DNA from: an uncultured Methanospirillum sp. | GTDB taxonomy: Archaea > Halobacteriota > Methanomicrobia > Methanomicrobiales > Methanospirillaceae | Reading direction: 5' to 3' | Length of the DNA stretch: 64,000 nucleotides | NCBI GenBank assembly: GCA_964637135.1 | Contig: CAZWTX010000011.1 | Span: 4,297 to 68,296, forward strand | Shown here: piece after piece, positions 8,629 to 62,735 of the stretch | How the letters are laid out: each line of letters begins with the position of its first letter | Numbering within the stretch: position 1 is the stretch's first letter | Notes under the pieces: generated by a model | Database searches by the model: none | Told to the model about the DNA's origin: nothing | The model's input: only the letters and a program-made list of their open reading frames with translations | Translations under genes and position numbers: made by a program

Positions 8629-9288
8629 ATGAAGTTCCAATATACACTGCTCATCTGTATCCTCTTCCTGATGGTGATACCCCTGTCTGCAGACCGGGAG
8701 GTCGGGTTTGCAGATGAAGGGAATGCAGCAGCAATCAGGGAATACAACGAGGCAGTAGACTTCGCAGCCGCAGGAGAGATGGACAAGGCCCTTACATCAG
8801 TGAATAATGCCCTTGATAACCAGCCGAACTTCACGCTTGCCCTGGTCACGAAAGGGAATATCCTGATCAATCTCGGCAGGCTCGATGAAGCTGAAAAAGC
8901 CATTAATGTAGCAGCCGGGATTGAACCGGAAGACCCCATGGTCCTCGTCAGCCAGTCATCCCTGATGCAGAGCAGGGGAGATCATGCGGCTGCCATCCGG
9001 TATGCCAATATTGCAATAACGTCTGATCCCGGATGTATCGAAGCCTGGATCCTCAAGGGCACATCACATGGATCTCTCGGGGAATATGAATCTGCAAAGA
9101 ACGCATCATTACAGGCATTGTCTCTTGATCCTGGCAACAATCCGGCACAGGCCAATCTTGCATATGCCCTCCGCATGATGGAAGCAAACAAGACCGGGAT
9201 GACCGGCCGCACGGGAGCACAAAGCCCGCTCCCGTGGATCCTTGTTCCCCTGTCCGTTCTGGCTCTGGCAGTATTACGACGGGTGTGA
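8629..9288 (+). CDS. Secreted TPR protein with C-terminal CTERM-like membrane anchor
   Basis: Signal peptide, about 4 TPR repeats, tail TG..AQSPLPWILVPLSVLALAVLRRV (hydrophobic helix plus RR). Confidence 0.85.
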   Translation: MKFQYTLLICILFLMVIPLSADREVGFADEGNAAAIREYNEAVDFAAAGEMDKALTSVNNALDNQPNFTLALVTKGNILINLGRLDEAEKAINVAAGIEPEDPMVLVSQSSLMQSRGDHAAAIRYANIAITSDPGCIEAWILKGTSHGSLGEYESAKNASLQALSLDPGNNPAQANLAYALRMMEANKTGMTGRTGAQSPLPWILVPLSVLALAVLRRV

Positions 9289-10974
9289 ACCGGTTTTCCG
9301 GGGACGACCACGTTTCCGCTTTTCTCCCGGAACAACGCCCGAGGAAACCGGAGGGTTAAAAGATTCAGGGACAACGATATCAGACACAACTGAAACGGAC
9401 TTTTTAGGACGACCACGTTTCCGCTTTTTTCCCGGAACACCACCGGGGGGAACCGGAGGTTCGGAAGACACAGGGACAACGATATCAGACACAACTGAAA
9501 CGGACTTTTTAGGACGACCACGTTTCCGCTTTTCTCCCGGAACAACGCCCGGGGAAACCGGAGGGTCGAAAGATTCAGGGACAACGACATCAGACACAAC
9601 TGAAACGGACTTTTTAGGACGACCACGTTTCCGCTTTTCTCCCGGAACAACGCCCGAGGGAACAGAGAGCGGAAGCAAAGAGTCTTTCCGGGGACGACCG
9701 CGTTTTTTCGGTCCTGGCCGGGGAGGTGATATAGGATCCGTATCTCCGAGAATAATAGAGGTATTGCCATTGTATCCCGGGGCCTCTTTTGCAATACGCT
9801 CTTTTGCCGCTTCACAATAGGTCTCAGAGATATCAATCCCCAGATACCGGCGTCCGAGACGGGATGCCACAAGTGCCGTTGTACCAACACCACTGAAGGG
9901 ATCGAGGATGATATCACCCTTAAAACTGAATAACTTCAGACACCGTTCTACCAGTTCCTCGGGGAACATTGCCGGATGGTTATACTGTTTCATCCGGCGT
10001 TCTGGTCCGATTGACCATTTTGCAACCACCCAGGACTTGAACTCCTCGTCAAGGATGTCGGCATCCTCGCCTCGCCCGTCTTTTTTCAAATCGCCTTTGC
10101 AGAAGACCTCGATAAACTCCCAGGTATATTTCAGATACGGGCTCGAAGGACTCTTCCAGCTTCCCCACGCGGTGTATTTACAGTTGTAATTATTCTTCTC
10201 CCAGATGATTTCCCCTTTCCAGATCATCTTCTCGTTCATGAAAAATGACGAGATAAGGTGATGAAGAGGGATGTAATCTGAGAAGAGGGGCTGGATATTG
10301 ACGATAAACCGCCCGCCATAGGTCAGTACCCGGATTCCTTCACGAAAGATCCGATACAGTTTATCGAGATATGCCGCCCAGTTGATCCCATCCTCGCTAG
10401 CCAGGTAATCAATGCCGAAATTATAGGGCGGGGACGTTATGATGAGGTCAATGCAGTTATCCGGAAGGGATGCCAGTATAGTTTCACTGTCCCCGGCAAT
10501 GATCTGGTTGGTACAGGTTTCAGGGATGGAATTTCTGGTCTTAGAAAATGAATGGTTTTCTGCGTAATAGTACGCACCTCTTGCCTTTTCCTTTTCTTTT
10601 CGTCCGCCCACTTTTCTCTCGTCGGCGTAGCCGGCGTACAACCGTTTTCCATTCCTGATCCCATAACTGCGGATTTTCAGGATCTCATCGTGTAACTGCA
10701 CGAGCGGGTGGAGCATGGCATCGCCGGTATCCTCCGGTCCCTCCAGCGAATCCTTCCCCAGTATCTCCCCGATCATTCCACGGATCTGCCCGGGATCAAG
10801 GTGGATCAGTTCAGCCTGAAGACCAGAAGGCTGGATACTGATCCGGAGCTCGTCTGGTGAGACCATGCCGGTGAGTGACTCTGCTGCACGAATCTCATCG
10901 CCGGAGAGCGGTCTTCCGAGATCAACACGGACCATTCGTGATGATGTCCCCGTCTTTTTTTTTCTTGCTGGCAT
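9274..10974 (-). CDS. Site-specific amino-DNA methyltransferase (beta class, N4-C/N6-A) with C-terminal AT-hook repeats
   Basis: Motif IV DLIITSPPY precedes HPAMFP and motif I ILDPFSGVGTT (beta order). Tail has five K/R-RGRP-K/R motifs. TATA-like TTTTATAAA about 30 nt upstream on the minus strand. Confidence 0.95.
   Translation of the reverse strand: MPARKKKTGTSSRMVRVDLGRPLSGDEIRAAESLTGMVSPDELRISIQPSGLQAELIHLDPGQIRGMIGEILGKDSLEGPEDTGDAMLHPLVQLHDEILKIRSYGIRNGKRLYAGYADERKVGGRKEKEKARGAYYYAENHSFSKTRNSIPETCTNQIIAGDSETILASLPDNCIDLIITSPPYNFGIDYLASEDGINWAAYLDKLYRIFREGIRVLTYGGRFIVNIQPLFSDYIPLHHLISSFFMNEKMIWKGEIIWEKNNYNCKYTAWGSWKSPSSPYLKYTWEFIEVFCKGDLKKDGRGEDADILDEEFKSWVVAKWSIGPERRMKQYNHPAMFPEELVERCLKLFSFKGDIILDPFSGVGTTALVASRLGRRYLGIDISETYCEAAKERIAKEAPGYNGNTSIILGDTDPISPPRPGPKKRGRPRKDSLLPLSVPSGVVPGEKRKRGRPKKSVSVVSDVVVPESFDPPVSPGVVPGEKRKRGRPKKSVSVVSDIVVPVSSEPPVPPGGVPGKKRKRGRPKKSVSVVSDIVVPESFNPPVSSGVVPGEKRKRGRPRKTGSHPS
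9301..9660 (-). repeat. 105-bp coding tandem repeat (about 3.4 copies, 35 aa each, one AT-hook per unit)
   Basis: GGACGACCACG recurs at 9302, 9407, 9512 and 9617 (period 105); a diverged GGACGACCGCG copy at 9692. Confidence 0.97.
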
Positions 10975-11257: not shown

Positions 11258-13528
11258 ATGCAGGGAGGTGAAACGAACCCTTCGAGGAGATCAGAGGAGC
11301 GAACACCGGGGGGAGCAGACCGGGATACGAGGGTTCAGGTGAATTCCGGTGTATTCCCCGACCACGATTCAGGAGATATGCGACGGGATTACAGACCGGG
11401 TTCTCCGGAAGGATCGATTGAATCCCTGCTCATTCTTGTCCGTGACGTCGTGCGGTTCTCGAGGACACAGGTTCAGGAAGGAAAAGGGATCAAGCAGGTT
11501 ATCAGCAGAGCCGGTAACATCCTCGGGGTTGAATACTGTTCATTCTTCGATCTTCTGCCTAAAACCGGAAAAACCGTTGCAGATGAGGTATATCTCTGGT
11601 CAGCGAGGTACGGGTTTATTATCGGGGCAGATTGTGAAGACCCGGATGACGGAATTATCCGGATCAGGAACCGGCTGTCAGCAGGAGAAACAATATTCCT
11701 GTTCAGGAACCGGTCAGACGGCTTAATCAGGAAACTCTTCGAGAACAGGGAGGTTGATTCTGCTCTTATCATTCCAGTATTCTCCCAGGCACGGCTCGCA
11801 GGATCATTTGTCCTCTGGAGCCGGGATCCTTACCGGAGGTGGCGTTCTGAAGAACTGCACTGCCTCAGTATTCTCGCCGAATTCCTCGGAAAACTTCTCG
11901 AACATGGTAGTGTTGAAGAACGACTTCTTCTCAGCGAGGAAAAGTTCAGGACCATTGTCGATACGATCGGTGATTTTTATTTCCAGACCGATACAACCGG
12001 TGCAATTCGTGCTATGAGCCCGTCCATGGTACAGGCACTCGGTTACGATGCCCAGACGGATCTTCAGGGTGCCCTGTTTGAGTCATTGCTTGCCGATGGT
12101 GAGCAATGGGCAGTTTTTCTTTCTGATATCCTTCAGACAAACGGGGTTCGGGACTATGAACTCGAACTGGCAGGGAAGAGCGGAAAACCCATCTACGGCT
12201 CAGTCAGCTGCCGGATGGTATTTGACAGGGTCGGCCGGTTCCAGGGCCTGGAAGGGATTATCAGGGATATCACCCGGAGAAAACAATATGCCGAGTTACT
12301 GGAGGAAAACCAGTGGAAACTTGACCAGGCACAGAAAATTGCAAAACTCGGTGTCTGGTCATATTACCTGAACAACCGGTACCTGAAAGTCTCACCGGAA
12401 ATATTCTCTATCTTCAGCATTCACACTGGAGAGAACGTAATCGGGTTTGATAGGATCCAGGATATGACCGCTCCGCAATATCTGGAGCGACTGAAATCAT
12501 GCATCGAACAGAAAATTCCTGCAGGGGAGGAGTTTGAACTGGAATTTATGGTAACCTATGAGCGGGGTGCATTCAAATTCATCAGGATGAAAAGCCTCCC
12601 CATAATCCGGGATAATATTATAAAAGGCGCTTTTGGCATTTTCCAGGATGTAACCGAGCGTAAGCAGGTTGAGCAGCACCTCATCAGGTATGCCGAGGAA
12701 CTTGAACGTAAAAACCTGGAAATGGATGCCCTCCGGACCCAGCTGCTTGATATGAACAGGGAACTGGAGGATCGTGTAAAGAGACGGGCTCTGCAGGTAG
12801 AGGAACTGCTCAGGCAGAAAGATGAGTTTATCATGCAGATCGGCCACGATCTCAAGACGCCCCTCACCCCGCTCGTTGCCATCCTTCCGTTTATCAGAAA
12901 ACGGATAGACGATCCTGAGATCGGGGAACTCCTGGACATGACAATAAAAGATGTCACGTCGATAAAGCACCTTATCACGTCAGTCCTTGAACTGGCACGA
13001 ATGAACACCCTGTACACAGTCTCTGATGCACAGGTCATCAGGGTTGCCGATGTCATCAACGAAGTGATCACTGATTACTCCTACCTTATTCTCCAGAAAA
13101 GCCTGACGGTGAACAACAGTGTGCCCAGGGATCTGACCACGCTCATGTCACCCATGCATTTTGAGACACTCATCGGCAATATCATCGGAAACGCAGTGAA
13201 ATACTCATATCTTGAAGGAACCATAACCATATCCGGAGAAGGATATGATGATTATATCCTGCTCCAGGTCAGGGATACCGGTATCGGCATGAACAAGGAT
13301 GATATCAGGTTCATTTTTGACGGATTTTATCGTGCAGACTCATCACGCCATGAACGTGACTCGCACGGACTCGGACTGACCATTGCAAAACGCGTGATCG
13401 AACTCTACGGGGGCCAGATCTGGGCAGCCAGTGAAGGAGAAGGGAAAGGAACGGTCTTCCAGGTAAAACTGAAGAAAAGACCGAGGAATATCACTACCGG
13501 CAGTGAAGATCCAGACACAAACCGGTGA
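11258..13528 (+). CDS. Cytoplasmic sensor histidine kinase (GAF-like, PAS, PAS, HisKA, HATPase)
   Basis: HDLKTPLTP H-box, IIGNAVKY N-box, DTGIG, GLGL; PAS C-termini DITRRK and DVTERK. Start uncertain (TTG 11048 or a later ATG such as 11258). Confidence 0.92.
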   Translation: MQGGETNPSRRSEERTPGGADRDTRVQVNSGVFPDHDSGDMRRDYRPGSPEGSIESLLILVRDVVRFSRTQVQEGKGIKQVISRAGNILGVEYCSFFDLLPKTGKTVADEVYLWSARYGFIIGADCEDPDDGIIRIRNRLSAGETIFLFRNRSDGLIRKLFENREVDSALIIPVFSQARLAGSFVLWSRDPYRRWRSEELHCLSILAEFLGKLLEHGSVEERLLLSEEKFRTIVDTIGDFYFQTDTTGAIRAMSPSMVQALGYDAQTDLQGALFESLLADGEQWAVFLSDILQTNGVRDYELELAGKSGKPIYGSVSCRMVFDRVGRFQGLEGIIRDITRRKQYAELLEENQWKLDQAQKIAKLGVWSYYLNNRYLKVSPEIFSIFSIHTGENVIGFDRIQDMTAPQYLERLKSCIEQKIPAGEEFELEFMVTYERGAFKFIRMKSLPIIRDNIIKGAFGIFQDVTERKQVEQHLIRYAEELERKNLEMDALRTQLLDMNRELEDRVKRRALQVEELLRQKDEFIMQIGHDLKTPLTPLVAILPFIRKRIDDPEIGELLDMTIKDVTSIKHLITSVLELARMNTLYTVSDAQVIRVADVINEVITDYSYLILQKSLTVNNSVPRDLTTLMSPMHFETLIGNIIGNAVKYSYLEGTITISGEGYDDYILLQVRDTGIGMNKDDIRFIFDGFYRADSSRHERDSHGLGLTIAKRVIELYGGQIWAASEGEGKGTVFQVKLKKRPRNITTGSEDPDTNR

Positions 13529-13561
13529 AGTGGTATTGGAGAACGGCACAAAGGAGTACAG

Positions 13562-13945
13562 ATGATGAATGAAAAGGGTTGCATTCTGATCGTTGATGAT
13601 GATCCCCATATCAGACAGACGGTCAAAACCATCCTCTCTGCTGAGGGTTTTGATGTCAGCATGGCAGAGAGCGGTGAAGAATGCCTCAATCTGTTGAAAG
13701 AAGGATTCTCCGGGGTGATCCTTCTCGATATCATGATGCCGGTGATGGACGGATGGGATACGATCAAGGCTATCATCTCCGAAGACCTCTTCAATGGAGT
13801 TGTGATCGCCATGCTGACCGCGAGGAGTGCCCCTGATGAAAAGATGGTCGGTCTCCAGGAATATGTGATTGATTATATCACGAAACCGTTCGACATCGAT
13901 GACCTCATCCGCAAGACAGAATATTTTCTCAGGTTTGTCCCGTAA
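13562..13945 (+). CDS. Single-domain response regulator (receiver only)
   Basis: ILIVDDD, LLDIMMPVMDG, MLTA, YITKPF. Confidence 0.95.
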   Translation: MMNEKGCILIVDDDPHIRQTVKTILSAEGFDVSMAESGEECLNLLKEGFSGVILLDIMMPVMDGWDTIKAIISEDLFNGVVIAMLTARSAPDEKMVGLQEYVIDYITKPFDIDDLIRKTEYFLRFVP

Positions 13946-13966
13946 CAACCATTCGGTCAGCCAGAT

Positions 13967-14521
13967 ATGAAGATTATAATCATCGGTTCCTCAACCGGCG
14001 GCCCGTTCATTCTCGACGAGATATTTTCCCGTTTTCCGTCAGTCAACGCCTGTATCCTCATCATCCAGCATCTTCCGACAGCATTCACGGAATCGTTCAG
14101 GAAAAACCTCCAGTCGATCACCTCCATGAAGGTGATTATCGGCGAAGAAGGACAGGTGATTGCACCGGGGACGATCATCATCGCCCCGGGAGACCGGCAT
14201 CTCATCTTACAAAAAAACCGTACCATCCATCTCGATGATGCTCCAAAAATCCACGGGGTCAGGCCTGCTGCTGACAGTACCATGTGTTCACTGGTCTCAC
14301 GAATCGAAGACCGGATCCTCGGAATTATTCTTACCGGGATGGGACAGGATGGTACGACCGGGCTCAGGCATATCAAATCAACCGGCGGGGTGACATGGGC
14401 ACAGGATCCGGAAACCGCTCCGATCAAAAGTATGCCCATGTCAGCAATAGAAGCAGGCGTGGCAGACAAAGTCTATTCCCCGGTTGAGATCAGGACGCAA
14501 CTGGTTGCATTCTGCAGTTGA
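13967..14521 (+). CDS. cheB: Stand-alone CheB-type methylesterase domain (no receiver)
   Basis: Catalytic Ser-His-Asp contexts GSSTGGP, IQHLP and LTGMGQDG; only 184 aa. Confidence 0.92.
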   Translation: MKIIIIGSSTGGPFILDEIFSRFPSVNACILIIQHLPTAFTESFRKNLQSITSMKVIIGEEGQVIAPGTIIIAPGDRHLILQKNRTIHLDDAPKIHGVRPAADSTMCSLVSRIEDRILGIILTGMGQDGTTGLRHIKSTGGVTWAQDPETAPIKSMPMSAIEAGVADKVYSPVEIRTQLVAFCS

Positions 14522-14671: not shown

Positions 14672-15520
14672 TTATGCCCGGGGAATATGCATCTGAAGAA
14701 TCTGAAAGGGATCATACCAGCAGAACACCGGGATGAGAATAATTACACCAAGACAGAACCCGAGAAAGATCAGGTCATAGACCACCAGGGGTTTTTTCCG
14801 GATACTGATGTAACTGTCCCGGCCATATCCCCGGCAGAGCATGCTGGTATACGTCCGTTCACCCTGCTCGAGCGACCTGATAAAGAGGGACCCCATCGTG
14901 TATCCCATGTTCACGATCCGGTACCGGTACGGTAATGCCCGGTCAAAGGGATCAAAAAGGCGGGTACTGAGGGCATCAGTCACCTTTCTGAATACGGCAC
15001 CGAACACGTACAGGTAACGGATCATCATCCCGAGTGCCAGTATCAGTTCAGGCGGCACTTTCAGCCTTCCGGCTCCTTCAAGAAGATCCTGAAGAGTTGT
15101 CGTTGACGAGAGGAGGACGATGAACGAAAAGCAGACCAGGAATTTTACCAGCAGGATTGAAGCAAACTGAACTGATTCGGCATACACCGCTATACCGAAC
15201 GGCAGATCGACAAGCGTATGATACTCCGTGTAATACCGGTTTTTAAAAAAAATCTGGAACCCACACAACATGAACCCGAACGGGAGGGCAAGAATCAACC
15301 TGCGGAGGTACACCACCGGGGATATGCGGGAGAGAATCCAGAGAGAGAGGAATAAAACAAAGAACAGGAGCCCGGCCGCATAGACTACCGGGGAATAGGG
15401 AACTGCAACAACAGATACGATCGCAGCACAACAGACGATCAGTTTCACTCGTGCATCGAGGGAATGAATGACACTCTTTTGGGAGGAGACCTCTTCCAGG
15501 TCAAAGAGTTCTTCTATCAT
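14672..15520 (-). CDS. cbiQ: ECF transporter T component (CbiQ/NikQ)
   Basis: HSLDARVKL, MMIRYL and SMLCRGY motifs; operon context. Confidence 0.93.
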   Translation of the reverse strand: MIEELFDLEEVSSQKSVIHSLDARVKLIVCCAAIVSVVAVPYSPVVYAAGLLFFVLFLSLWILSRISPVVYLRRLILALPFGFMLCGFQIFFKNRYYTEYHTLVDLPFGIAVYAESVQFASILLVKFLVCFSFIVLLSSTTTLQDLLEGAGRLKVPPELILALGMMIRYLYVFGAVFRKVTDALSTRLFDPFDRALPYRYRIVNMGYTMGSLFIRSLEQGERTYTSMLCRGYGRDSYISIRKKPLVVYDLIFLGFCLGVIILIPVFCWYDPFQILQMHIPRA

Positions 15521-16350
15521 GAGCGCTTCTCAAAGGCTTTCAGGAATGCCTGCTCGGCCTCCTCGTACGTGTATGCCATATCAATGCTGACCCCGCGCTT
15601 CTGGAGCGAATGGATAAGTTTTGGGAGAACCGGGATATCGAGCCGTATCCCGGTGAGAAGATCAGGCCGGGAGAAGATATCTGAAACACTCCCTTCTGCA
15701 ACAGACTCCCCTCGGTTCATGACATAAATGTAGTCAGCCAGTTCAGCGGTGAGTGAAAGACTGTGCGTTGAAAAAATAACCGTCATCCCGTAGGTATCCG
15801 AAACGGTCCGGATAAACCTGACAATATCCTGGATGCCCTGGGGATCGAGGCCGGCGGTCGGTTCGTCAAGAACAAGTACCTGCGGTTCCATTGCAATAAC
15901 CCCGGCAATGGCAACACGTTTTTTTTCACCGCCGGAGAGGTGATGCGGGACACGGGTCAGATAATCTGAAAGGCCCACTATCCGCAATGCCTCGGTGACC
16001 CTGTGGCGCACAGTCTCTTCAGGAAGCCCAAGGTTGGTCGGACCGAACGCGACATCCTGTTCAACAGTTGGAGCGAATATCTGGTCATCGGGGTTTTGAA
16101 AGACCAGGCCCACGGTTTTGCGGACTTCCCTGATATTCTGTTTCGTCACCGGCTCTCCGCGTACCAGGACCTCCCCGCTTGTCGGTTTCAGCACTCCGTT
16201 AAAATGCTTGAAAAGAGTACTCTTTCCAGCCCCGTTCGGGCCGATAATTGCAATACGGGTGTTTCGTGGAGCGACAAACGAGATGTTTTTGAGAGCGGCG
16301 ATACCTCCCCTGTAGGTATGGCAAAGATCCCGGGTTTCTATGATATGCAT
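15517..16350 (-). CDS. cbiO: ECF transporter ATPase (CbiO/NikO)
   Basis: GPNGAGKST, FQNPDDQ, LSGGEKKR, DEPTAGLDP. Confidence 0.95.
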   Translation of the reverse strand: MHIIETRDLCHTYRGGIAALKNISFVAPRNTRIAIIGPNGAGKSTLFKHFNGVLKPTSGEVLVRGEPVTKQNIREVRKTVGLVFQNPDDQIFAPTVEQDVAFGPTNLGLPEETVRHRVTEALRIVGLSDYLTRVPHHLSGGEKKRVAIAGVIAMEPQVLVLDEPTAGLDPQGIQDIVRFIRTVSDTYGMTVIFSTHSLSLTAELADYIYVMNRGESVAEGSVSDIFSRPDLLTGIRLDIPVLPKLIHSLQKRGVSIDMAYTYEEAEQAFLKAFEKRS

Positions 16351-16496
16351 TCAGTATTCTCCAGGTCCGCAAAACCAGTATCAAAAATCCGGATATTGTA
16401 ATAACTCAATACTCATTCTTGCATGAGAGTATGATAAGAATATTACGAATCATCCACGACAGAAAAAAAAGGAATGAAAAAAGAAATATATGGTAC

Positions 16497-16844
16497 TCAC
16501 GACTTCGATCCGGTCTTTCCTGTCCGGACGAGGTACAAAGCGCCGACAACTACGATCAGCGTGATGATGATTCCGGCAATAATTGCTACAATCCCGCCGG
16601 ATGAACCCATACTCTCACCAAGCGAGTAATCGGGCATCGGGGATTCATATGCAAAGGAACCGGTCCCGATAACTTCAGGATCGCCCTCTTCAGGAGCTGA
16701 CCCGGTGAGGTCTTTCTGACCGGATACAACAAGCGCCGTGCTTTCGAGTCCGTCCGGATCGCCAGATGCGAGGAAGACGGCAACAACACCAATGAGGATG
16801 GCAATAATGACACCGGCAATAATGAAGGTCTTATTGTCAATCAT
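16497..16844 (-). CDS. PDGLE-domain membrane protein (NikN-like)
   Basis: ASGDPDGLE motif between two TM helices; overlaps the M-component stop. Confidence 0.9.
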   Translation of the reverse strand: MIDNKTFIIAGVIIAILIGVVAVFLASGDPDGLESTALVVSGQKDLTGSAPEEGDPEVIGTGSFAYESPMPDYSLGESMGSSGGIVAIIAGIIITLIVVVGALYLVRTGKTGSKS

Positions 16845-17479
16845 GCAGCAACTCCGGTTTTTGTATCAACAAGGTCAGGGCGTGCCATGGCAAGCACATA
16901 GATGACCACGGCCGTCACGATTCCTTCGATAACACCGATGATGGCATGGTATATACCCATGGCAACCAGTCCGGGACCGAGCGGGAACGTCCCTGCAACA
17001 GCCATCTCAACCGCACAGGCGAGAGCCGGGATGAGACAGGCCAGCCATGCGGCAACCGCTGCCGACAGGTAGGTGTTTTTCACGGTTTTCAACAGTCCGT
17101 GATACGAATAATACCCGACAAAGCCGCCGATAACACCCATGTTCAGGATGTTTGCTCCCATTGTCGTGATCCCACCGTCTCCAAAGATGAAGCCCTGCAC
17201 GATCAGCACGAGGGTCAGGATAAATACCGCGGCAAACGGAGATCCGAGAACGATGGCAGCGAGGGCCCCTCCGACAAGGTGACCGCTCGTGCCCATCGAA
17301 ACGGGCAGGTTGAAACTCTGCAGGGCAAAGATCCCGGCTGCCAGAACGGCGATCAGGGGGATCTTATCCTCGTTCATTTCAGAACGGGCCCATTTTACTG
17401 CCAGTGCGAGAAATACAAGCGCAATAATCCAGTATATTGCTGCCTGAGGAAGGGGTATGAACGCATCAGGAATATGCAT
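16841..17479 (-). CDS. cbiM: ECF S component CbiM/NikM (MHIPD N-terminus suggests nickel)
   Basis: Start MHIPDAF at 17479; GTSGHLVGG, FGDGGITTMGAN. Confidence 0.93.
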   Translation of the reverse strand: MHIPDAFIPLPQAAIYWIIALVFLALAVKWARSEMNEDKIPLIAVLAAGIFALQSFNLPVSMGTSGHLVGGALAAIVLGSPFAAVFILTLVLIVQGFIFGDGGITTMGANILNMGVIGGFVGYYSYHGLLKTVKNTYLSAAVAAWLACLIPALACAVEMAVAGTFPLGPGLVAMGIYHAIIGVIEGIVTAVVIYVLAMARPDLVDTKTGVAA

Positions 17480-17496
17480 GGTACTACCATCATACC

Positions 17497-17524
17497 ATAT
17501 GTGCAAATCTCATTTAGGTGTTAC
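17497..17524. promoter_or_regulatory. Possible NikR-type operator
   Basis: ATATGT-N16-TGTTAC; each half matches the E. coli NikR GTATGA-N16-TCATAC consensus at 4/6 with exact spacing; 18-45 nt upstream of the cbiM/nikM start. Confidence 0.35.
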
Positions 17525-38239: not shown

Positions 38240-40873
38240 ATGACCCCCTCCCTAAACCATTTCTCCTTTTCATCCATCATTACCGGTCTTCTCGCCCTAT
38301 CTGCGATAATCGGGATATCTGTCATTTCAGGTTTTTCCTGGCAGGAGACGATACACCGGATTGACGCTGACTGGAATGAAACCATCCGCGAGTCAGGTGA
38401 TTCACTCGCATGGTCTCTCTCACAGATCAGCCAGGGGCAATACCATACAGACAATGTCCCATATGATTCTGTCATCGGCAGTTTTGTTGCCAGACACGGG
38501 GAGATCCTCGCAGTGACCCTGTATGATCAGGAACACAGAATGATCGGCGCAGCCGGTCACCAGGCGGGATCGGCCCCGGAGTCAATGATAGACCGGGTGT
38601 TTCTGACAAAAGGTGAGGAGATCATCGAAGATCGCCCAAGCAACACCGTCACCGTCATCCGGTTCATTGATACCATCAGGCAGCCGGGAGGGGCCGGAGA
38701 CCTTCCCGGTCTCGTCTCCGTCATCGTGTATGATTATTCAGGCATTGTCGCCGAAAAAGACCGCGTTCTCATAGCTGGATCGGTGATGACCAGCATTGCC
38801 CTCTTCATGGTCATGCTCTTTTCAGGCATCCTCTTCTGGTACCGTTTGCGGGCGACCCCCCGGAGTGATGACGATATCGGCGGGCAGAGCGATACCATTC
38901 CGGATGATCATCCGGAGAAAAATTCATCAGGAGAAGGAGACGGGTACAGGGAGGTATGGGAGAGCATCCCTGATCTCCTCTGCCGGTTCAGAAAGGACGG
39001 TACCATCATTGCTGTTAATCCGGCGTTTGCCGGTTTTTTCGGAGTGACCGGGCAGGATAGTGCCGGCACCCCGCTCGACCGGTTTCTCCCGCCGGAGCCG
39101 GATCCAAAACCGGGGTGGCGATCTATTCCTGGCGGGAACACCGGGACATGGTCATGGGAACAGGAGATCACGGATAAGACTGGTTCACCGAGATGGATTG
39201 AGTGGACAGGGAGCCCTTCATCCATCAGGGAAGGAGCAGATCTCCTGATCACCGGGCGGGATATCACCACCCGGAAACGGGTTGAAGCAGATCTTCGCGA
39301 GAGCCTGGAGAAGAATACCATCCTCGTCCAAAACCTGCCTGATTATATCCTGGTACACCGGGAGAACAGAATATGCCTCGTCAATCCGGCGATATGTTCA
39401 GGTCTTGGGTACGCAAAGAAAGACCTGATTGGGACTGATTTTTTATCTCTCGTCCATCCTGCTGATCTGGCAGGCATCACTACCTTGCATGAGCGGAATC
39501 TTCCGGAAGGCACCGAGAACCCCCCGATCAGGATCCGGTCATCAGACGGGCAATACCGGAGCGTCCTCGTCAGGATGATGGAGATCTCCTGCAGTGGGGA
39601 TACGGCTACCCAGGTCATCCTCTCTGAGATCCCCCGGTTTGAAAAAACCCAGAAGAAATTCAGGAAGATGGAAGAGCGGTACCGGAATCTCATCGAGCAG
39701 TTGAATGAAGGAATCTGGGTCGTTGATCAGGAGGGCAGGACACTCTATACCAACCGGAGGATGGAAGAGATACTCGGATATTCCCCCGATGAGATGAAAA
39801 ATATCCTGTTCGACGAGTTTTTTGATCCTGAAATGCGGGCATATGCAGGCGAACAACTCCGTCGGCGCCAGGAAGGATACACAGACCGGTACCAGATCAC
39901 GTTCAGACACCGCGACGGGCATGAGGTCTTTGCCGAGATATCGGCAACCCCGCAGATCAATGCCAGGAACCGGTTCCAGAGTTCGCTCGCGGTGGTAACC
40001 GATATCACCGAACGGAACGAGTCAGAGAAAAAAATCCATCAATATACCCTCGAACTCGAGCGGAAAAACGGGGAACTTGAACTCCTCCGTGACCAGATGA
40101 TCCTCGTAAATAATGATCTGGACCGGATCGTCAGGGGAAGAACAGCACAGGTCATGCGACTGCTCAGGCAGAAGGATGAATTCGTTATGCAGCTCGGGCA
40201 TGATCTCAGGACACCGCTCACCCCGATCATCGCCCTCCTTCCTGAACTGACAGAGTCGGTGAAGAGTGAAGAGGGATGTGAAATTCTCCGGATAATCGAA
40301 CGTAATATCCGTTTCATCCAGGATATTGCACAAAAATCACTGAAACTGGCACGGTTGAACTCCGTTGATATCGTCCCTGAACGGGTACCGGTCCAGGTTG
40401 CAGAAACCATACACAGCGTCATCCAGGCTCACCAGCAGAAACTTGACACGACCGGAATCAGGGTGGTGGAAGATATTTCAACGGATCTCATCATCAGTGC
40501 AGACCTGATCCTCTTCCAGGAACTGATTGATAACCTGGTGGGAAATGCTCTCAAGTTTATCTCCCCGGAGACCGGGGTTATCATCATCCATGCCTGGCAT
40601 GACGGAGATAATGCCATTATAACCATCTCTGACAACGGGATCGGACTTGCCGACGGTGAGAAGGACAAAATATTCGAGGAATTTTTCAAGTCTGACCGCT
40701 CACGGCACGATCGATCGTCCATTGGCCTCGGTCTTTCAATCTGCAGGAGAATCGTTCAGAAACACGGGGGCGATATCCATGCCGAAAGTGACGGGCCGGG
40801 AACCGGGACAACCTTCGTTATCCGGATTCCGGGTATTCAAAGAGATGATATACCTGCTTCCCCTATTAACTGA
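38240..40873 (+). CDS. Membrane-bound multi-PAS sensor histidine kinase
   Basis: Two TM helices flanking an extracytoplasmic region, three PAS domains, HDLRTPLTP, NLVGNALKF, DNGIG, GLGL. Confidence 0.93.
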   Translation: MTPSLNHFSFSSIITGLLALSAIIGISVISGFSWQETIHRIDADWNETIRESGDSLAWSLSQISQGQYHTDNVPYDSVIGSFVARHGEILAVTLYDQEHRMIGAAGHQAGSAPESMIDRVFLTKGEEIIEDRPSNTVTVIRFIDTIRQPGGAGDLPGLVSVIVYDYSGIVAEKDRVLIAGSVMTSIALFMVMLFSGILFWYRLRATPRSDDDIGGQSDTIPDDHPEKNSSGEGDGYREVWESIPDLLCRFRKDGTIIAVNPAFAGFFGVTGQDSAGTPLDRFLPPEPDPKPGWRSIPGGNTGTWSWEQEITDKTGSPRWIEWTGSPSSIREGADLLITGRDITTRKRVEADLRESLEKNTILVQNLPDYILVHRENRICLVNPAICSGLGYAKKDLIGTDFLSLVHPADLAGITTLHERNLPEGTENPPIRIRSSDGQYRSVLVRMMEISCSGDTATQVILSEIPRFEKTQKKFRKMEERYRNLIEQLNEGIWVVDQEGRTLYTNRRMEEILGYSPDEMKNILFDEFFDPEMRAYAGEQLRRRQEGYTDRYQITFRHRDGHEVFAEISATPQINARNRFQSSLAVVTDITERNESEKKIHQYTLELERKNGELELLRDQMILVNNDLDRIVRGRTAQVMRLLRQKDEFVMQLGHDLRTPLTPIIALLPELTESVKSEEGCEILRIIERNIRFIQDIAQKSLKLARLNSVDIVPERVPVQVAETIHSVIQAHQQKLDTTGIRVVEDISTDLIISADLILFQELIDNLVGNALKFISPETGVIIIHAWHDGDNAIITISDNGIGLADGEKDKIFEEFFKSDRSRHDRSSIGLGLSICRRIVQKHGGDIHAESDGPGTGTTFVIRIPGIQRDDIPASPIN

Positions 40874-40889
40874 TTATATTGGTGGAACG

Positions 40890-41273
40890 ATGGCGGATGA
40901 TCAATCAGGTATCCTGATCGTAGACGATGACGAGGATATCCTGTTCACGGTGAAATCAATCTTTAAAAAGAACGGGATGGATGTCACGCTCGCAAAAAGC
41001 GGAAAAGAATGTCTTGAGATTCTGGAGAAGGGGTTTCACGGGGTGGTTCTCATGGACATCATGATGCCGGGAATGGACGGCTGGGATACTGTCCACGAGA
41101 TTGTCAGCCGGGGATTGGCAGATGATCTGATCATTTCCATGTTCACGGCCAAGGATGCCCCTGATGCCAAGATGGACTATCTGAAAGAGTACGTGATCGA
41201 TTATATCACCAAGCCCTTTGAACCTGACGAGTTAATCACCGTTGTCAGGGAGTATCTTGATCTCCTCTCCTGA
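40890..41273 (+). CDS. Single-domain response regulator (paralog of 13562-13945)
   Basis: ILIVDDD, MDIMMPGMDG, EYVIDYITKPF. True start MADDQ at 40890. Confidence 0.95.
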   Translation: MADDQSGILIVDDDEDILFTVKSIFKKNGMDVTLAKSGKECLEILEKGFHGVVLMDIMMPGMDGWDTVHEIVSRGLADDLIISMFTAKDAPDAKMDYLKEYVIDYITKPFEPDELITVVREYLDLLS

Positions 41274-41291
41274 ATACGACTCAACCCTGCG

Positions 41292-41846
41292 ATGAAAATC
41301 ATCATTATCGGTTCTTCAACCGGGGGGCCCAGGATCCTGTTCGATCTCTTTGCTAACCTGAGTTGTCCCCATGCAGCGGTGCTCATCGTGCAGCACCTTC
41401 CTGCCTCGACGTCTCCGAGGATGGTAAAAAGACTCGGACAACTCAGCCGGATGACTGTGACCCTTGCAGAAAACGGGGATGAGATCAGAACCGGCACCAT
41501 CTACGTGGCCCCGGGAGATTACCACATGCTCCTTGAGAATAACCAGAGGATTGTCCTCTCTGACGGTGAAAAAGTCAACTTTGTCAGGCCGTCGATCGAT
41601 CTCACCATGAAGTCCCTCGTCCCGGATGGAAAAGACCAGTTTCTCGGCATTATCCTGACCGGGATGGGTATCGACGGGGCAGAGGGGATTTTGTCAATGA
41701 AGACGATCGGGGCGAAAACCATCGTACAGGATCCCAATACTGCAACCATCCGGAGCATGCCCGAAGCCGCCATCCGGACCGGAAAAATAGATGATATCCT
41801 TTCAGTTCCGGATATCAGGGCACGGATTGTATCGTTTGGTTCATGA
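41292..41846 (+). CDS. cheB: Stand-alone CheB-type methylesterase domain (paralog of 13967-14521)
   Basis: [20 protein letters not shown]; 184 aa. Confidence 0.92.
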
Positions 41847-44800
41847 CTCCGCACGAAGTCTGAAGACCTCCATATCCCTGTGCATGTTGCCCACCGCGGT
41901 ATTGATGAGATCGATTATCTCGGTGATCTGAGAGACGACGGCAAGTGCTTCCTCACTCGTCGCAGAAGACTGGGTTGCATCGTCTGCCGTCTTCTTTACA
42001 AGACCGCTCATCTCATTTGCGCTTGCAGTGATCTCTTCAAATGAAGCAGCCTGCTGCTCGGTTGCCCGGGCAATGGTGAGCATCTTCTGGTTAATCTCAT
42101 CCACGGCCAGTGTCAGTTCCTTGAAGGTGCTCAGGGTGTCGGTCAGTGCCTGGTTACCCTCCTGAACGGCTTTTCCGGCGGCCTCTATTGCAACCGCGGC
42201 ACTATCTGACTTTTTCTCAAGACCCTGGATCATGTCAGCAATCGATTCGGCAGATGTCCGTGATTCCTGGGCTAGTGCCTTGACTTCAGAGGCGACCACG
42301 GCGAATCCCCGACCGGCATCACCGGCCCTCGCCGCTTCGATTGCCGCATTGAGGGCCAGGAGGTTTGTCTGGTTTGCGAGATCCGTGATGATGTTGACAA
42401 TCTTGCGTATCTGGTCCATCTCACCCCTGATCTCACCGATGATCACCTCGACCTCTCCTGAAGAGCGGGTGATGCTTACCATTCCCTGGTCAGCTGCTCC
42501 CGCATAGTCGGTTCCCTTCAGGGCAAGGTGGTTTGCATCCTCGCTCAGGCGTGCAACCGCATCTGCATTTCCTGATATCTCGCTGACCATGACCGTGAGA
42601 TCGGCCATCGCACGGAGCACCTGATCAATGCCTTCTTCAGATTTTGCAGCGTTCCGGGATGTCTCTTCTGCATTCTGGGCAATTTCACGTGCACCCCGGC
42701 TGACATCCTCTACCCCGTACTGGGCAGTACTGGCATGCTTGGAAAGTCCCTCAACCTCTTCATTGAGACTGGTGATCGTCCCTGATATGTCCTTTCCGAT
42801 GGTATTCAGGATGGCACTGAACCGGGCAAATTCACCGGCAACCGGGAGCGAGGGATCGAAGGCTTCCGAGAAGTCACAGTGAGAATACGCCTCACAAACC
42901 CTGATTGCCTCACGAATCGGACCGATGAACGCATTCAGGGTATTATTCATCCCGATGATGACTTTGGCATAATCTCCAAGATGTATCGCGGGATCAGCAC
43001 GGACCTCAAGGTTTCCGGCCGTTGCAGCGTCTGACAGCAGATTCACGTCGTCGATCAGTTTATGAATCGCTGCGATGCACTGGTTCAGGTTGTTTTTTAT
43101 CTCGTTGAAATCGCCCTTGTACTCTTCAGTAATGGCCGGCGGGAGATCGCCCTTGCTGATGCGGTCGATATATTCGGCTGCAAGGTTCAACGGACTGATA
43201 TATGCATCAACCATGCTGTTGATCCCGCCAATCATCTTTCCGTTGTACCCGATGTACTTTGACGTGTCAGCACGGTAATCAAGCCGGCCGTTATTTGCTG
43301 CTTCGATGAGGGATTTTATGTCATCGTTGCGCATGTGCACGACATCGATCAGGGCATTCAGGTTGTTTTTGATCTCGTTAAAGTCGCCGTGGTACTCCTC
43401 GGTGATACGCGGAGGAAGGTCACCCTTGCTGATGCGGTCGATATACTCAGCAGAGACATTGATGGGGCCGATGTACGCATCCAGCATCTCATTGATGCCA
43501 CGAATCATCTTCCCGTTTTCACCGGGATACTTTTCAGCATCGGCACGAACATCGAGACGGCCTGCAAGAGCTCCCTCAATCAACATCTTGATGTCATCGT
43601 TGCGCATATGCACGACGTCCATCAGGGCATTCAGGTTGTTCTTGATCTCGTTGAAATCACCCTTGTAATCTTCAGTGATACGCGGGGGGATGTCACCCTT
43701 GCTGATACGATCGATATATTCCGCGGATACGTTGATGGGACCGATGTACGCATCCAGCATCTCGTTGATGCCTTCAATCATACGCCCGTTCTCACCGGGA
43801 TACTTCTTCGCGTCAGCACGGACATCGAGACGACCGCCGAGGGCACCGTCAATCAGCATTTTGATGTCAGTGTTACGCATGTGCACGACATCAATCAGGG
43901 CGTTCAGGTTGTTCTTGATCTCGTTGAAGTCCCCGTGATATTCCTCGGTGATACGTGGTGGGATGTCACCCTTACTGATACGGTCGATATACTCAGCAGA
44001 GACGTTGATAGGACCGATGTACGCATCAAGCATCTCGTTGATGCCTTCAATCATACGCCCGTTCTCACCAGGATACTTCTTCGCGTCGGCACGGACATCG
44101 AGATGGCCGCCGAGGGCACCGTCAATCAGCATTTTGATGTCAGTGTTACGCATGTGCACGACATCAATCAGGGCGTTCAGGTTGTTCTTGATCTCATTGA
44201 AGTCCCCGTGGTAATCTTCATCGATACGCGGGGGAATGTCACCCTTGCTGATACGGTCGATATACTCAGCAGAGACGTTGATGGGACCTATGTATGCATC
44301 CAGCATCTCGTTGATGCCTTCAATCATACGTCCGTTCTCACCAGGGTATTTATCAGCATCAGCACGGACATCGAGACGGCCGGCAAGCGCACCGTCAATC
44401 AGCATTTTGATGTCAGTGTTACGCATGTGCACGACATCAATCAGGGCGTTCAGGTTGTTCTTGATCTCATTGAAGTCCCCGTGGTAATCTTCATCGATAC
44501 GCGGGGGAATGTCACCCTTGCTGATACGGTCGATATACTCAGCAGAGACGTTGATGGGACCTATGTATGCATCCAGCATCTCGTTGATGCCTTCAATCAT
44601 ACGTCCGTTCTCACCAGGGTATTTATCAGCATCAGCACGGACATCGAGACGGCCGGCAAGCGCTCCGTCAATCAGCATCCTGATGTCAGTGTTACGCATG
44701 TGCACGACGTCAATCAGGGCATTCAGGTTGTTCTTGATCTCGTTGAAGTCCCCGTGATAATCCTCGGTGATGCGCGGAGGAAGGTCACCTTTGCTGATAC

Positions 44801-46622
44801 GGTCGATATATTCAGCAGAGACATTGATAGGGCCGATGTACGCATCCAGCATCTCATTGATGCCTTCAATCATACGCCCGTTTTCACCGGGATACTTCTT
44901 CGCGTCAGCACGGACATCGAGACGGCCCGCGAGGGCACCGTCGATCAGCAATTTGATGTCAGTGTTACGCATATGCACAACGTCAATCAGGGCATTCAGG
45001 TTGTTCTTGATCTCGTTGAAATCTCCCTTGTAATCTTCAGCAATACGCGGGGGAATGTCACCTTTGCTGATGCGGTCGATATATTCAGCAGAGACATTGA
45101 TAGGGCCGATGTACGCATCCAGCATCTCGTTGATGCCTTCAATCATCTTCCCGTTTTCACCAGGGTACTTATCAGCATCTGCACGAACATCGAGACGACC
45201 TGCGAGGGCACCGTCAATCAGCATCCTGATGTCAGTGTTACGCATGTGCACGACGTCAATCAGGGCATTCAGGTTGTTCTTGATCTCGTTGAAGTCCCCG
45301 TGATAATCCTCGGTGATGCGCGGAGGAAGGTCACCTTTGCTGATACGGTCGATATATTCAGCAGAGACATTGATAGGGCCGATGTACGCATCCAGCATCT
45401 CATTGATGCCTTCAATCATACGCCCGTTTTCACCGGGATACTTCTTTGCGTCAGCACGGACATCAAGACGGCCGGCAAGCGCACCGTCGATCAGCAATTT
45501 GATGTCAGTGTTACGCATGTGCACGACGTCAATCAGGGCATTCAGGTTGTTCTTGATCTCGTTGAAGTCCCCGTGATAATCCTCGGTGATACGGGGAGGA
45601 ATGTCACCCTTACTGATGCGGTCGATATACTCCGCAGAGACGTTGATCGGGCCGATGTACGCATCCAGCATCTCGTTTATCCCTTCAATCATCTTCCCGT
45701 TTTCACCGGGGTACTTCTTTGCATCGGCTCGGACATCGAGACGGCCGTCAAGCGCTCCCTGGATAAGCATCTGGATATCGACATTGCGCATATGCACGAC
45801 ATCGATCAGCGCATTCAGGTTGTTCTTGATCTCGTTGAAGTCACCACGATACGTCTCGGTGATACGCGGGGGAATATCACCTTTGCTGATACGGTCAATA
45901 TATTCAGCAGAGACGTTGATGGGGCCGATATACGCATCGAGAATATTGTTGACACCTTCGATCATCTTCCCATGGTAACCGGGATACTTCGAGGCGTCGG
46001 CACGTGCGTCCAGCCGTCCTTCGATTGCTGCTGTCGCCAGGAACTTGATATCGTCGCCACGGAGTTTTGCCACCTCGATGAGCCGGTTCACCCCTTTTAC
46101 GATCTTCGCAAATTCACCGGAATAGAGATCCTTGTCTATGGGATCGGGAAGGTTTCCGTCCGCGAATGCGATCATCGCCTCACCTATCTCACGTGACGGG
46201 GCAGAAACACCTTCCACCGCTTCATCAAGATTCTCGATCATCCGGGCAAACCCCCCGGTGTACCGCTCGGGATCTACCCGGATAGAGAGATCTCCCTGCA
46301 TAAATGCCTTGGAGATACGGGAGATATCTCCCTGCATCATCGCCATGCCGGTCCGGAGCTTTTCAAGGGTATCTGATATCATTGCCCGCTGACCGGGAAG
46401 TCGTCCAATGTCAGAAGAGAAATCTCCTGCCTGGATTTGTGTAACCGCTTTGGAGATGACACCAATCTCTCCGACCTGCAAATCAATCAGATTGTTCACA
46501 AGGTCGGCGATATCCCTCTCCGTCTCGCCGAGCTTGGAGGTTTCAACCCGTGCTTCTGAAAGGCCGGTTTTCTGAAGATCTACTGCTTTTTTAATTTCCT
46601 CAAACAGACGCTCGATGTCCAT
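41841..46622 (-). CDS. Cytoplasmic poly-HAMP methyl-accepting chemotaxis protein
   Basis: C-terminal signalling hairpin [34 protein letters not shown]; no TM segment; repeated 91-aa units. Likely start MDIERL at 46622. Confidence 0.95.
43080..46030 (-). repeat. 273-bp coding tandem repeat (91-aa di-HAMP unit), 10 near-identical copies plus diverged flanking copies
   Basis: [17 protein letters not shown] occurs 10 times, plus [17 protein letters not shown] once; first to last offset is 2730 bp = 10 x 273. Confidence 0.97.
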
Positions 46623-47010
46623 TAGTAACACCCCAACCGTAACGTGATGCAACGTTCAGAACCAGTGCAGGTTCTGATGTGGTTTGTTCGTCACTCATGC
46701 ATATAAGGAGTAGGGATCGTAAAATCCGGTTCTCACCAGGAGATGATACCAGCACCAGCCCTTATTTCACTGATCATTCACTATCCGCTTTCTCTCAAAG
46801 GAGTTTTAAAGGCAATACCGTTGGAAAGGGACACGAATTCTTCCTCAAAAGAGTATTGTTGGTATGATAAAATATGAATGTTTTCTGATCTTAATCCCAA
46901 TTATTTTAGGTTTTGAGAAAAATTCGACAACCTGCCCCGAAGGGAAGCGTTAAAAAGATGTCACGAGGAGGTGTTCTTATTCCGAAAAGGGCCATATCCC
47001 GCCGGAAAAC

Positions 47011-62724: not shown

Positions 62725-62735
62725 CGGAGGATCAG

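Follow-up and report, generated by a model that had tools for sequence, protein, structure and literature searches.

Three co-oriented genes occupy positions 11258-14521 of the window, by which we mean the whole 64-kb stretch of archaeal DNA analysed here, and they encode, as a preliminary description of the locus had it, a histidine kinase, a receiver of 127 aa and a CheB catalytic domain of 184 aa. In the list of open reading frames they are separated by 33 bp (kinase/receiver) and 21 bp (receiver/catalytic domain). Kinase 1 (11258..13528, + strand) comprises 756 aa from its ATG and has the Pfam and NCBIfam architecture GAF-PAS-PAS-coiled coil-HisKA-HATPase_c; its true start is uncertain, because the frame is open from a TTG at 11048 and contains a further in-frame ATG at 11099, and the gene call on an independent contig likewise gives 756 aa. 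The Pfam matches include GAF, PAS, HisKA (1.1e-7) and HATPase_c (4e-25), and the phosphorylatable histidine is residue 530 (nt 12845-12847). No hydrophobic segments were found in kinase 1, which is predicted to be cytoplasmic. The second gene encodes a stand-alone receiver (13562..13945, +; 127 aa; Pfam Response_reg 3.7e-26) with an AGGAG Shine-Dalgarno sequence 7 nt 5' of its ATG, and the third the receiver-less CheB catalytic domain, here called CheBc 1 (13967..14521, +; 184 aa; Pfam CheB_methylest 2.6e-54). Both proteins are intact, as had been proposed: the phospho-acceptor residues of the receiver are complete (D12/D13, D56 at nt 13727-13729, T86, Y105 and K108), and CheBc 1 keeps its Ser/His/Asp triad (S9, H35 and D128; nt 13991, 14069 and 14348). 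As only 8 residues precede the catalytic Ser, CheBc 1 is free of any linker remnant. The RNA trace of the locus consists of a single low-depth metatranscriptome contig of 233 nt over the 3' end of the CheB gene.

A second, paralogous cassette is found in the same window at 38240-41846. Kinase 2 (38240..40873, +; 877 aa) contains three PAS domains, HisKA and HATPase_c according to Pfam, is 30% identical to kinase 1 by tblastn and has its phosphorylatable histidine at residue 654; two N-terminal hydrophobic segments, located before the PAS domains, point to membrane insertion with a loop on the outside. Receiver 2, also stand-alone (40890..41273, +; 127 aa), and the likewise receiver-less CheBc 2 (41292..41846, +; 184 aa; triad intact) are 54% and 48% identical to their counterparts in copy 1. 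In both copies the kinase is of the class I HisKA type and not CheA, with HisKA and HATPase_c matches above the Pfam cut-offs. The H-boxes of the two kinases read GHDLKTPL and GHDLRTPL, and the HDLKT sequence, which places a HisKA E/DxxT/N motif after the phosphorylated histidine, presumably fits a bifunctional kinase/phosphatase.

The second cassette is directly abutted by a chemoreceptor gene (41841..46652, - strand), which is convergent with that of CheBc 2 and overlaps its 3' end by 6 bp. The encoded methyl-accepting chemotaxis protein (MCP) of 1603 aa contains 13 HAMP_2 units and an MCPsignal domain (PF00015, 7e-39; Pfam). No transmembrane segment was found in this poly-HAMP MCP, and it is predicted to be cytoplasmic. 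Motif scans identified a canonical hairpin tip of 30 residues, which binds CheA/CheW, together with a canonical methylation helix, represented by stretches of 15 and 13 residues, and the 10-residue methylation-site consensus. The earlier statement that no MCP is adjacent therefore holds for copy 1 and fails for copy 2.

Conservation of the gene order in archaea and bacteria

The linkage of the three genes, for which a survey of gene neighborhoods had been suggested, proved to be strongly conserved: the same order recurs at dozens of independent loci, and hence far beyond chance. The complete order kinase-receiver-CheBc was found at 15 non-redundant loci, namely the two copies of the window, one locus each in Methanoculleus, Methanospirillum, Thermoplasmatales, Geobacter and Geobacteraceae, three other Methanomicrobiales loci and five unassigned metagenome contigs, so that the cassette ranges over Methanomicrobiales, Thermoplasmatales, Geobacteraceae and other bacteria. 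M. hungatei carries it as well (P0020 and P0143, on one contig). The intergenic gaps in the cassettes vary between -35 and +38 bp, and at several junctions start and stop codons overlap by 4 bp, which is what operons with translational coupling would be expected to show.

At every locus examined, a member of the receiver-less CheB clade lies directly 3' of a receiver that stands alone and belongs to one particular subfamily. This receiver-CheBc pair forms the invariant core of the module and is kept even where the kinase is absent. An independent survey, seeded on the receiver motif alone by matching a DNA pattern against metagenomes, returned CheBc as the next gene after 31 of 36 close receivers (at least 130 bits) and after all 14 of those with at least 160 bits. 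Of 29 metagenome loci, 23 have a HisKA kinase no more than 1.5 kb away, and some receiver-CheBc pairs lack a neighboring kinase. When a genome collection was scanned with the CheB alignment, mostly canonical CheBs were retrieved, and cassettes were present at 5 of 80 loci. When 90 CheB domains are placed in a tree, those of 13 cassettes fall into a single clade, and the same four groups appear in the kinase-core, receiver and CheB trees. This agreement indicates that the cassette has been inherited and duplicated as a unit.

None of cheA, cheW, cheR, cheC and cheD was detected among the 52 open reading frames scanned across the 64 kb, i.e., all those of at least 150 aa that were judged to be genes, including four cbi genes; the reported absence of adjacent cheA, cheW and cheR is thus borne out and extends to the entire window. 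At the cassette loci examined none of these three genes is adjacent, nor were cheC and cheD present there, apart from a divergent CheB-CheR fusion 1.3 kb upstream of the receiver-CheBc locus L213. The lack of cheA, cheW and cheR across the window is also what would be expected if the cassette were a decaying, functionless remnant of a former che operon. This explanation is, however, hardly credible and is considered refuted by the conservation data: the catalytic and phospho-acceptor residues are invariant in archaea and bacteria, the cassette CheBs constitute one clade, the whole cassette has been duplicated with orthologues of both copies in other genomes, and upstream synteny is kept among Methanospirillum and the other Methanomicrobiales loci examined.

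The receiver and its catalytic neighbor

The receivers of the cassettes share a subfamily signature in the alignment, DIMMPxMDGWD and PDxKMxGLQEYVxDYITKPF. All of 22 receiver relatives keep D12, D56, T86, Y105 and K108, and D13 is nearly invariant. Furthermore, the alpha4-beta5 face is invariant within the subfamily, which fits a conserved protein partner, since in canonical CheB it is the alpha4-beta5 face of the receiver that covers the active site.

The preliminary description had interpreted the arrangement as a split CheB, and in the evolutionary sense this does not stand. The window receiver scores 123-204 bits against other cassette receivers and 22-41 bits against the receiver domains of canonical CheBs, and in NCBIfam it best matches receivers of the PhoB/OmpR type; on these grounds an origin as a detached CheB receiver was rejected, and from sequence comparison the cassette receiver looks recruited rather than split from CheB. 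None of the best 120 receiver homologues is fused; all of them stand alone. One receiver-CheBc fusion was encountered (P0248), and it is uninformative because its receiver is degenerate and just 31% identical to the window receiver. In both window copies receiver and CheBc share a reading frame, separated by one stop codon (TAA and TGA) and 7 or 6 further codons. Gaps of 23, 7, 5, 9, 20, 3, 32 or -4 nt occur at other loci, and with an in-frame share close to the one-in-three chance rate, programmed read-through and recent fission were both rejected.

The catalytic domain itself is a clear member of its family. Both copies match CheB_methylest (PF01339) with 184 bits, where the cut-off is 24, and over 173 of 174 profile positions, and the Ser/His/Asp triad is invariant in the alignment of 26 relatives. 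S9, H35 and D128 correspond to Ser164, His190 and Asp286 of Salmonella CheB (residues 2-181 aligned with 157-339 of 1A2O). Among PDB sequences CheBc 1 matches 3SFT (8.5e-37), and its AlphaFold (AF2) model (pLDDT 97.7) superimposes in Foldseek on the CheB catalytic-domain crystal structures 3SFT, 1CHD and 1A2O with TM values of 0.91-0.93. CheBc is accordingly a predicted methylesterase/deamidase, whose model closely matches bona fide receptor esterases. It falls below the cut-offs for canonical whole-protein CheB (NCBIfam NF001965 and NF009206; 181 and 160.6 bits versus 293 and 342), with the NCBIfam match covering model positions 168-352 only, and it has no receiver in cis. Compared with the canonical CheBs of Salmonella/E. 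coli (1A2O) and Thermotoga maritima (3SFT), the fold, the triad and 32-41% identity are shared, and regulation by a receiver domain would be common to both. In the cassette, however, the receiver is a separate polypeptide of another subfamily, closest to the PhoB/OmpR type, a HisKA kinase replaces CheA as the putative phosphodonor, and the genes lie outside a che operon.

Whether CheBc needs its receiver at all is the question raised by the most serious competing explanation. The isolated catalytic domain of enteric CheB, as known from E. coli, is already active, and a free CheBc may therefore need no activator. CheBc could then be constitutive, with co-expression as its only control, and the output of kinase and receiver would lie elsewhere, in a protein partner or a phosphate sink. 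It would in this respect resemble the receiver-less CheB of Campylobacterota (the Campylobacter/Helicobacter lineage), in which the missing N-terminal receiver is one of the features that define the F3 chemosensory class (PMC9321776). Moreover, this type of receiver is not exclusive to CheBc, since 5 of the 36 close receivers are paired with a kinase alone and the sister clade is orphan, adjoining ksgA or aminotransferase genes; the kinase, for its part, is absent near some receiver-CheBc pairs. Against a constitutive CheBc, no part of the module is more invariant than the receiver-CheBc pair, which persists without the kinase and often with overlapping stop and start codons, the trees are congruent and the output face of the receiver is invariant. 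Furthermore, the pathway of the F3 CheB is built on CheA (cheVAW, plus a fusion of CheA to a receiver), and this CheB has neither a receiver nor a HisKA kinase of its own next to it, whereas the cassettes share its receiver-less state and lack cheVAW and CheA at all loci examined, which places them outside the F3 class. On balance, we regard constitutive activity as unlikely, and prefer the proposed gating of CheBc in trans by the receiver.

Response regulators made of a single domain are known to act on partner proteins in trans, examples being CheY at the motor switch and DivK and CpdR in Caulobacter. Their phosphorylation is read by the partner through the alpha4-beta5-alpha5 face, and the cassette receiver is likewise stand-alone. 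To our knowledge, and in the literature searched, no case has been described in which a CheB catalytic domain is the partner of a single-domain receiver, and gating of CheBc in trans would, as far as we know, be the first regulation of this kind. Domains of the CheB type outside CheA operons are also known from CheB-CheR fusions with PAS/histidine kinases (e.g., P0247), and cheBR fusions have been counted in Geobacter (PMC8396549). These fusions carry CheR in the same chain and no separate receiver, whereas the cassette contains no methyltransferase. A description of the cassette was not found in the literature searched, and 'CheB, REC-CheB' are the only such architectures given in the census of Galperin (2018).

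Chemoreceptors as candidate substrates and the proposed signaling path

At 10 of 30 distinct related loci the next gene downstream encodes an MCP, nine times in convergent and once in co-directional orientation, and two loci surveyed separately (L096 and L103) also have a co-directional downstream MCP. The archaeal neighbor MCPs are orthologous to one another, with orthologues of the poly-HAMP MCP in the same position at L003, L091 and L094, and two bacterial neighbor MCPs with dCache_2 domains are each other's nearest relatives. The poly-HAMP MCP is the likely substrate of CheBc 2.

As an alternative target, the preliminary description had proposed the Glu-rich coiled coil of the kinase itself, and the window kinases do contain a long charged helix ahead of the HisKA domain. 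Neither kinase, however, contains a methylation-site consensus, strict or loose, in the motif scan, and the 'EE' of the kinase 1 coiled coil is not kept in copy 2, which leaves the self-substrate idea without support. More broadly, CheBc might demethylate or deamidate some protein other than an MCP, and the absence of an adjacent MCP at copy 1 and about two thirds of the related loci, as well as of a linked CheR at any locus, could be read in this way. We nevertheless find a non-MCP substrate, whether the coiled coil or another protein, very unlikely: the recurrent adjacency of MCPs of two unrelated architectures, in archaea as well as bacteria, would be hard to explain otherwise, and CheBc is structurally close to bona fide receptor esterases.

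With chemoreceptors as the preferred targets, we propose with about even confidence that the cassettes are a conserved accessory module, in which a CheB-type receptor methylesterase/deamidase is controlled by a classical sensor kinase instead of CheA. The cue would be sensed by the kinase, in copy 1 a cytoplasmic protein with GAF and PAS domains and in copy 2 a probably membrane-bound one with three PAS domains, which would autophosphorylate on the HisKA histidine and hand the phosphate on to Asp56 in the single-domain receiver encoded alongside. That kinase and receiver are cognate partners in this transfer is supported, though not proved, by their adjacency and the congruence of their trees. 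The receiver may then bind the co-encoded CheBc via its invariant alpha4-beta5 face, and its phosphorylation would switch CheBc, whether through relief of inhibition or through activation or recruitment. CheBc would in turn demethylate or deamidate Glu/Gln sites on chemoreceptors, namely the adjacent cytoplasmic poly-HAMP MCP in the case of copy 2 and MCPs encoded elsewhere in that of copy 1. As a net result, a non-chemotactic input would reset the signaling bias of particular chemoreceptors, which would signal onward via ordinary CheA/CheW. Phosphotransfer, the binding of receiver to CheBc together with its sign, and the substrate are all inferred steps of this path. For M. hungatei, 3 CheA, 3 CheR, 4 CheB and 27 MCP genes have been reported (PMC4704411), and a methylation system is thus available to its cassette.

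A more far-reaching interpretation, which we consider quite unlikely, is that kinase, receiver and CheBc, joined by an MCP in about one third of the loci, represent an unrecognized class of CheA-independent chemoreceptor-modification pathway. Such a pathway would be feed-forward, with the kinase input written into the methylation/amidation state of a dedicated receptor, as opposed to the feedback exerted through CheA. Taken furthest, this would mean a self-contained sensory circuit, free of CheA, made up of the HisKA kinase and the cytoplasmic MCP.

The usual account of receptor methylation is that of a closed loop in which CheA drives the feedback. In the cassettes, a CheB-type enzyme is connected by a free receiver to sensor kinases of the ordinary kind, in archaea as well as bacteria, and if the proposed accessory role is correct, unrelated cues perceived by PAS, GAF or Cache domains could retune specific chemoreceptors. 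The predicted solubility of kinase 1, the receiver, CheBc and the poly-HAMP MCP makes the system convenient for experiments. Finally, because these proteins are annotated as 'CheB', chemotaxis pathways may be overcounted. An example is M. hungatei, for which four CheB genes are reported and which carries at least one cassette-type CheBc.

Gene content of the two cassettes

Cassette 1 lies on the forward strand and comprises a 756-aa kinase (11258..13528), a stand-alone receiver (13562..13945) and CheBc, a receiver-less CheB catalytic domain (13967..14521), separated by gaps of 33 and then 21 bp, with an AGGAG located 7 nt 5' of the receiver ATG. The kinase frame is open from TTG 11048 and has a second in-frame ATG at 11099; the 756-aa form is also the one called independently on a metagenome contig. 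Pfam assigns GAF, PAS, HisKA and HATPase_c domains to the kinase, Response_reg to the receiver, and CheB_methylest only to CheBc (2.6e-54, 173/174 profile positions), to which NCBIfam whole-protein CheB models aligned with their C-terminal halves alone (181 vs a cut-off of 293). The phospho-accepting His of the kinase, D12/D13/D56/T86/Y105/K108 of the receiver and the catalytic S9/H35/D128 of CheBc are all in place, and the predicted CheBc model (pLDDT 97.7) superimposes on the catalytic domains of the CheB crystal structures 3SFT, 1CHD and 1A2O with TM scores of 0.91-0.93. These results confirm the three genes, their positions, their domains and the intact Ser/His/Asp contexts as given in the preliminary description, and the absence of adjacent cheA, cheW and cheR reported there extends to the whole 64 kb, where Pfam scans (48 ORFs plus precomputed assignments for four cbi genes) detected no CheA, CheW, CheR, CheC or CheD.

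A tblastn search of the window with the three cassette 1 proteins revealed cassette 2 at 38240..41846, in which the kinases share 30%, the receivers 54% and the CheBc domains 48% identity with copy 1; kinase 2 carries two hydrophobic N-terminal segments and kinase 1 none. In both copies receiver and CheBc share a reading frame, being spaced by one stop (TAA or TGA) plus 7 or 6 codons (21 and 18 nt; 13946-13966 and 41274-41291), which is probably due to chance, since the frame is not kept in orthologous loci.

Convergent with cassette 2 is an MCP gene (41841..46652, minus strand), whose 3' end overlaps CheBc 2 by 6 bp and which encodes a cytoplasmic, TM-less protein of 1603 aa with 13 HAMP_2 units (Pfam), a canonical hairpin tip and, in a motif scan, a textbook methylation helix (15 residues). 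Within this gene, 43313-45989 holds 9.8 copies of a 273-bp repeat (88% identity), which encode the near-identical 91-aa HAMP_2 pairs behind the 13 hits; the repeats have seemingly been homogenised or expanded recently. A 358-aa receiver-PAS protein is encoded 358 bp upstream on the same strand (47011-48087, minus), an adjacency absent from L183, the single orthologous locus with room for it. REC-PAS-PAS-HAMP-MCPsignal fusions are listed for Methanospirillum and Methanosphaerula (PMC5847659).

Conservation of the linkage

The nearest CheBc homologues fall into some 40 clusters, all of CheB_methylest-only proteins with a length of 182-201 aa; many come from Methanospirillum and other Methanomicrobiales. 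The preliminary description had left the linkage to a neighbourhood survey, in which it proved conserved: a stand-alone receiver directly precedes the CheBc homologue in every locus fetched with context, and a HisKA/HATPase kinase nearly always precedes the receiver. These loci are Methanospirillum sp. L082, the further Methanomicrobiales L085 and L088 (the latter syntenic with copy 1), the copy-2-type L091 and L094, the bacterial contig L096 and a further locus, L099; the genome scan added Methanoculleus, a Methanomicrobiales MAG, a Thermoplasmatales MAG and Geobacter, and L101 and Geobacteraceae L103 were reached via the receiver. Neighbouring cassette genes are separated by -35 to +38 bp, and at several junctions stop and start overlap by 4 bp. 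Such conservation rules out that the cassette is a decaying operon.

Neighbour joining of 90 CheB catalytic domains places the 13 cassette CheBs in a single clade without any receiver-fused CheB. The kinase-core, receiver and CheBc trees recover the same four groups (copy-1, copy-2, bacterial and Methanoculleus/Thermoplasmatales); the three genes have therefore been inherited, transferred and duplicated together, and the two window copies are old paralogues. The CheB domain accounts for about 44,000 clusters among 1.84 billion representative proteins, and about 30 of the best 150 CheB-domain matches are receiver-less proteins of the cassette type, which is thus a small minority of CheB.

For an independent survey seeded on the receiver subfamily, whose signature is DIMMPxMDGWD plus PDxKMxGLQEYVxDYITKPF, the first motif was converted to a degenerate DNA pattern, which matched 120 metagenome loci. 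Given downstream room, CheBc follows 31 of 36 receivers scoring at least 130 bits and all 14 scoring at least 160 bits. The survey contains 38 distinct CheBc clusters at 90% identity. Among the 29 CheBc-linked loci with upstream room, the kinase is directly upstream in 19 and within 1.5 kb in 23; some receiver-CheBc pairs have no kinase nearby, which leaves the pair itself as the invariant core of the module. An MCP lies within 400 bp in 10 of 30 CheBc clusters with downstream room (9 convergent, 1 co-directional). The window MCP is orthologous to MCPs adjoining other archaeal cassettes, and two bacterial dCache_2 MCPs, both in kinase-receiver-CheBc-MCP operons, are mutual nearest relatives. 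A sister receiver clade (105-130 bits, ~123 aa, DIMMPxxDGWD) is orphan: in its loci (L110, L161, L141, L159 and some 50 further ones from metagenomes) neither a kinase nor CheB is close by, and the gene immediately upstream invariably encodes a ksgA-type rRNA dimethylase or a class-V aminotransferase.

Variant arrangements were also observed. In L004 (7506-8558) and L216 (5505-6722) a kinase is followed by three stand-alone receivers and a tandem two-domain CheB protein, and such CheB-CheB proteins, of 383-570 aa, also rank highest in the profile search (P0241, P0242, P0244 and P0245). P0248 (318 aa, representative library) is a natural receiver-CheBc fusion with a catalytic-domain score like that of the cassette clade; its receiver may be a pseudo-receiver, judging from SRD in place of DDD (loss of the acidic pocket) and TEPF in place of TKPF (loss of the conserved Lys). 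In L103 (8116-13538) the kinase-receiver-CheBc-MCP operon extends further, with genes for another PAS kinase, another receiver (130 aa) and a REC-PAS-GGDEF-EAL protein, which hints that the bacterial version is tied to c-di-GMP signalling.

Receiver origin and the proposed signalling chain

Scored against the window receivers, cassette receivers reach 123-204 bits vs 22-41 bits for canonical CheB receiver domains and a median of 43 bits for other stand-alone (CheY-like) receivers. The best 120 receiver homologues are all stand-alone, and the top NCBIfam matches are PhoB/OmpR-type receivers. The receiver is thus no detached CheB receiver, and the 'split CheB' originally proposed is not supported as an evolutionary origin. 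Helix alpha4 and strand beta5, a region usually variable among receivers, are invariant in the subfamily alignment; in 1A2O it is this face of the receiver that lies against the active site of CheB. The invariance fits a conserved protein partner, for which the ever-adjacent CheBc would be the obvious candidate.

That kinase, receiver and CheBc function together is very likely. In the proposed chain, the kinase would phosphorylate the receiver and, because of its HDLKT motif, probably dephosphorylate it too; the receiver would control CheBc in trans, and CheBc would demethylate or deamidate chemoreceptors, namely the adjoining poly-HAMP MCP for copy 2 and MCPs encoded elsewhere for copy 1, so that a non-chemotactic input would reach the adaptation state of the receptors. 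This is the favoured reading, although we consider the chances of the entire chain evenly balanced. Its main rival, a constitutively active CheBc beside a receiver with a different output, is a minority possibility, in line with the isolated enteric CheB catalytic domain, which is active by itself, and with systems of the F3 chemosensory class. An MCP is the fairly probable substrate of CheBc and a different one is improbable; the kinase coiled coil suggested earlier is disfavoured, as both kinases lack any methylation-site motif (motif scan) and the EE pair pointed out in copy 1 is not kept in kinase 2.

In the literature found, receiver-less CheB is known only from CheA-based F3 systems (PMC9321776), whereas the 64 kb here hold no CheA. 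The archaeal two-component census lists the architectures 'CheB, REC-CheB' only (PMC5847659), the M. hungatei genome paper gives a plain count of 4 CheB genes (PMC4704411), and Geobacter has recorded CheB-CheR fusions (PMC8396549). The cassette is undescribed in the literature found, although subscription journals may hold a description; its parts are ordinary and its wiring is novel relative to that literature. If the chain holds, this conserved and experimentally tractable module would offer the first known example of a CheB catalytic domain under trans control of a classical two-component pair.

Genomic surroundings

The window carries a TATA-binding protein gene, which identifies its source as archaeal, and its sequence recurs in metagenomes from digesters, wastewater, sediment and other sources. 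Upstream of cassette 1, the order K+ transporter, TPR protein, N6/N4 DNA methylase is shared with Methanospirillum; together with the best database hits, this synteny indicates a Methanospirillum relative. The methylase gene (9274-10974, minus) overlaps the TPR gene (8629..9288) with its 3' end, and the C-terminal tail of the methylase, with AT-hook-like GRPKK motifs, is encoded by 3.4 copies of a 105-bp repeat (9302-9663; 90% identity); the pair is syntenic 5' of the cassette in L082, L085 and L088. Genes for a cobalt/nickel ECF transporter (cbiQ, cbiO, a PDGLE-domain gene and cbiM; 14672-17506, minus) converge on cassette 1, and cbiQ-cbiO are likewise the next neighbours in L088. Further downstream, the gene at 55399-60894 (plus) encodes a probable surface protein of 1831 aa, which combines DUF7948 and beta-propeller (SBBP) repeats with nine PKD domains; it is followed by a 190-aa minus-strand ORF without a Pfam match (61051-61623) and by a MoxR AAA ATPase and DUF58/VWA pair (61654-63623, plus).
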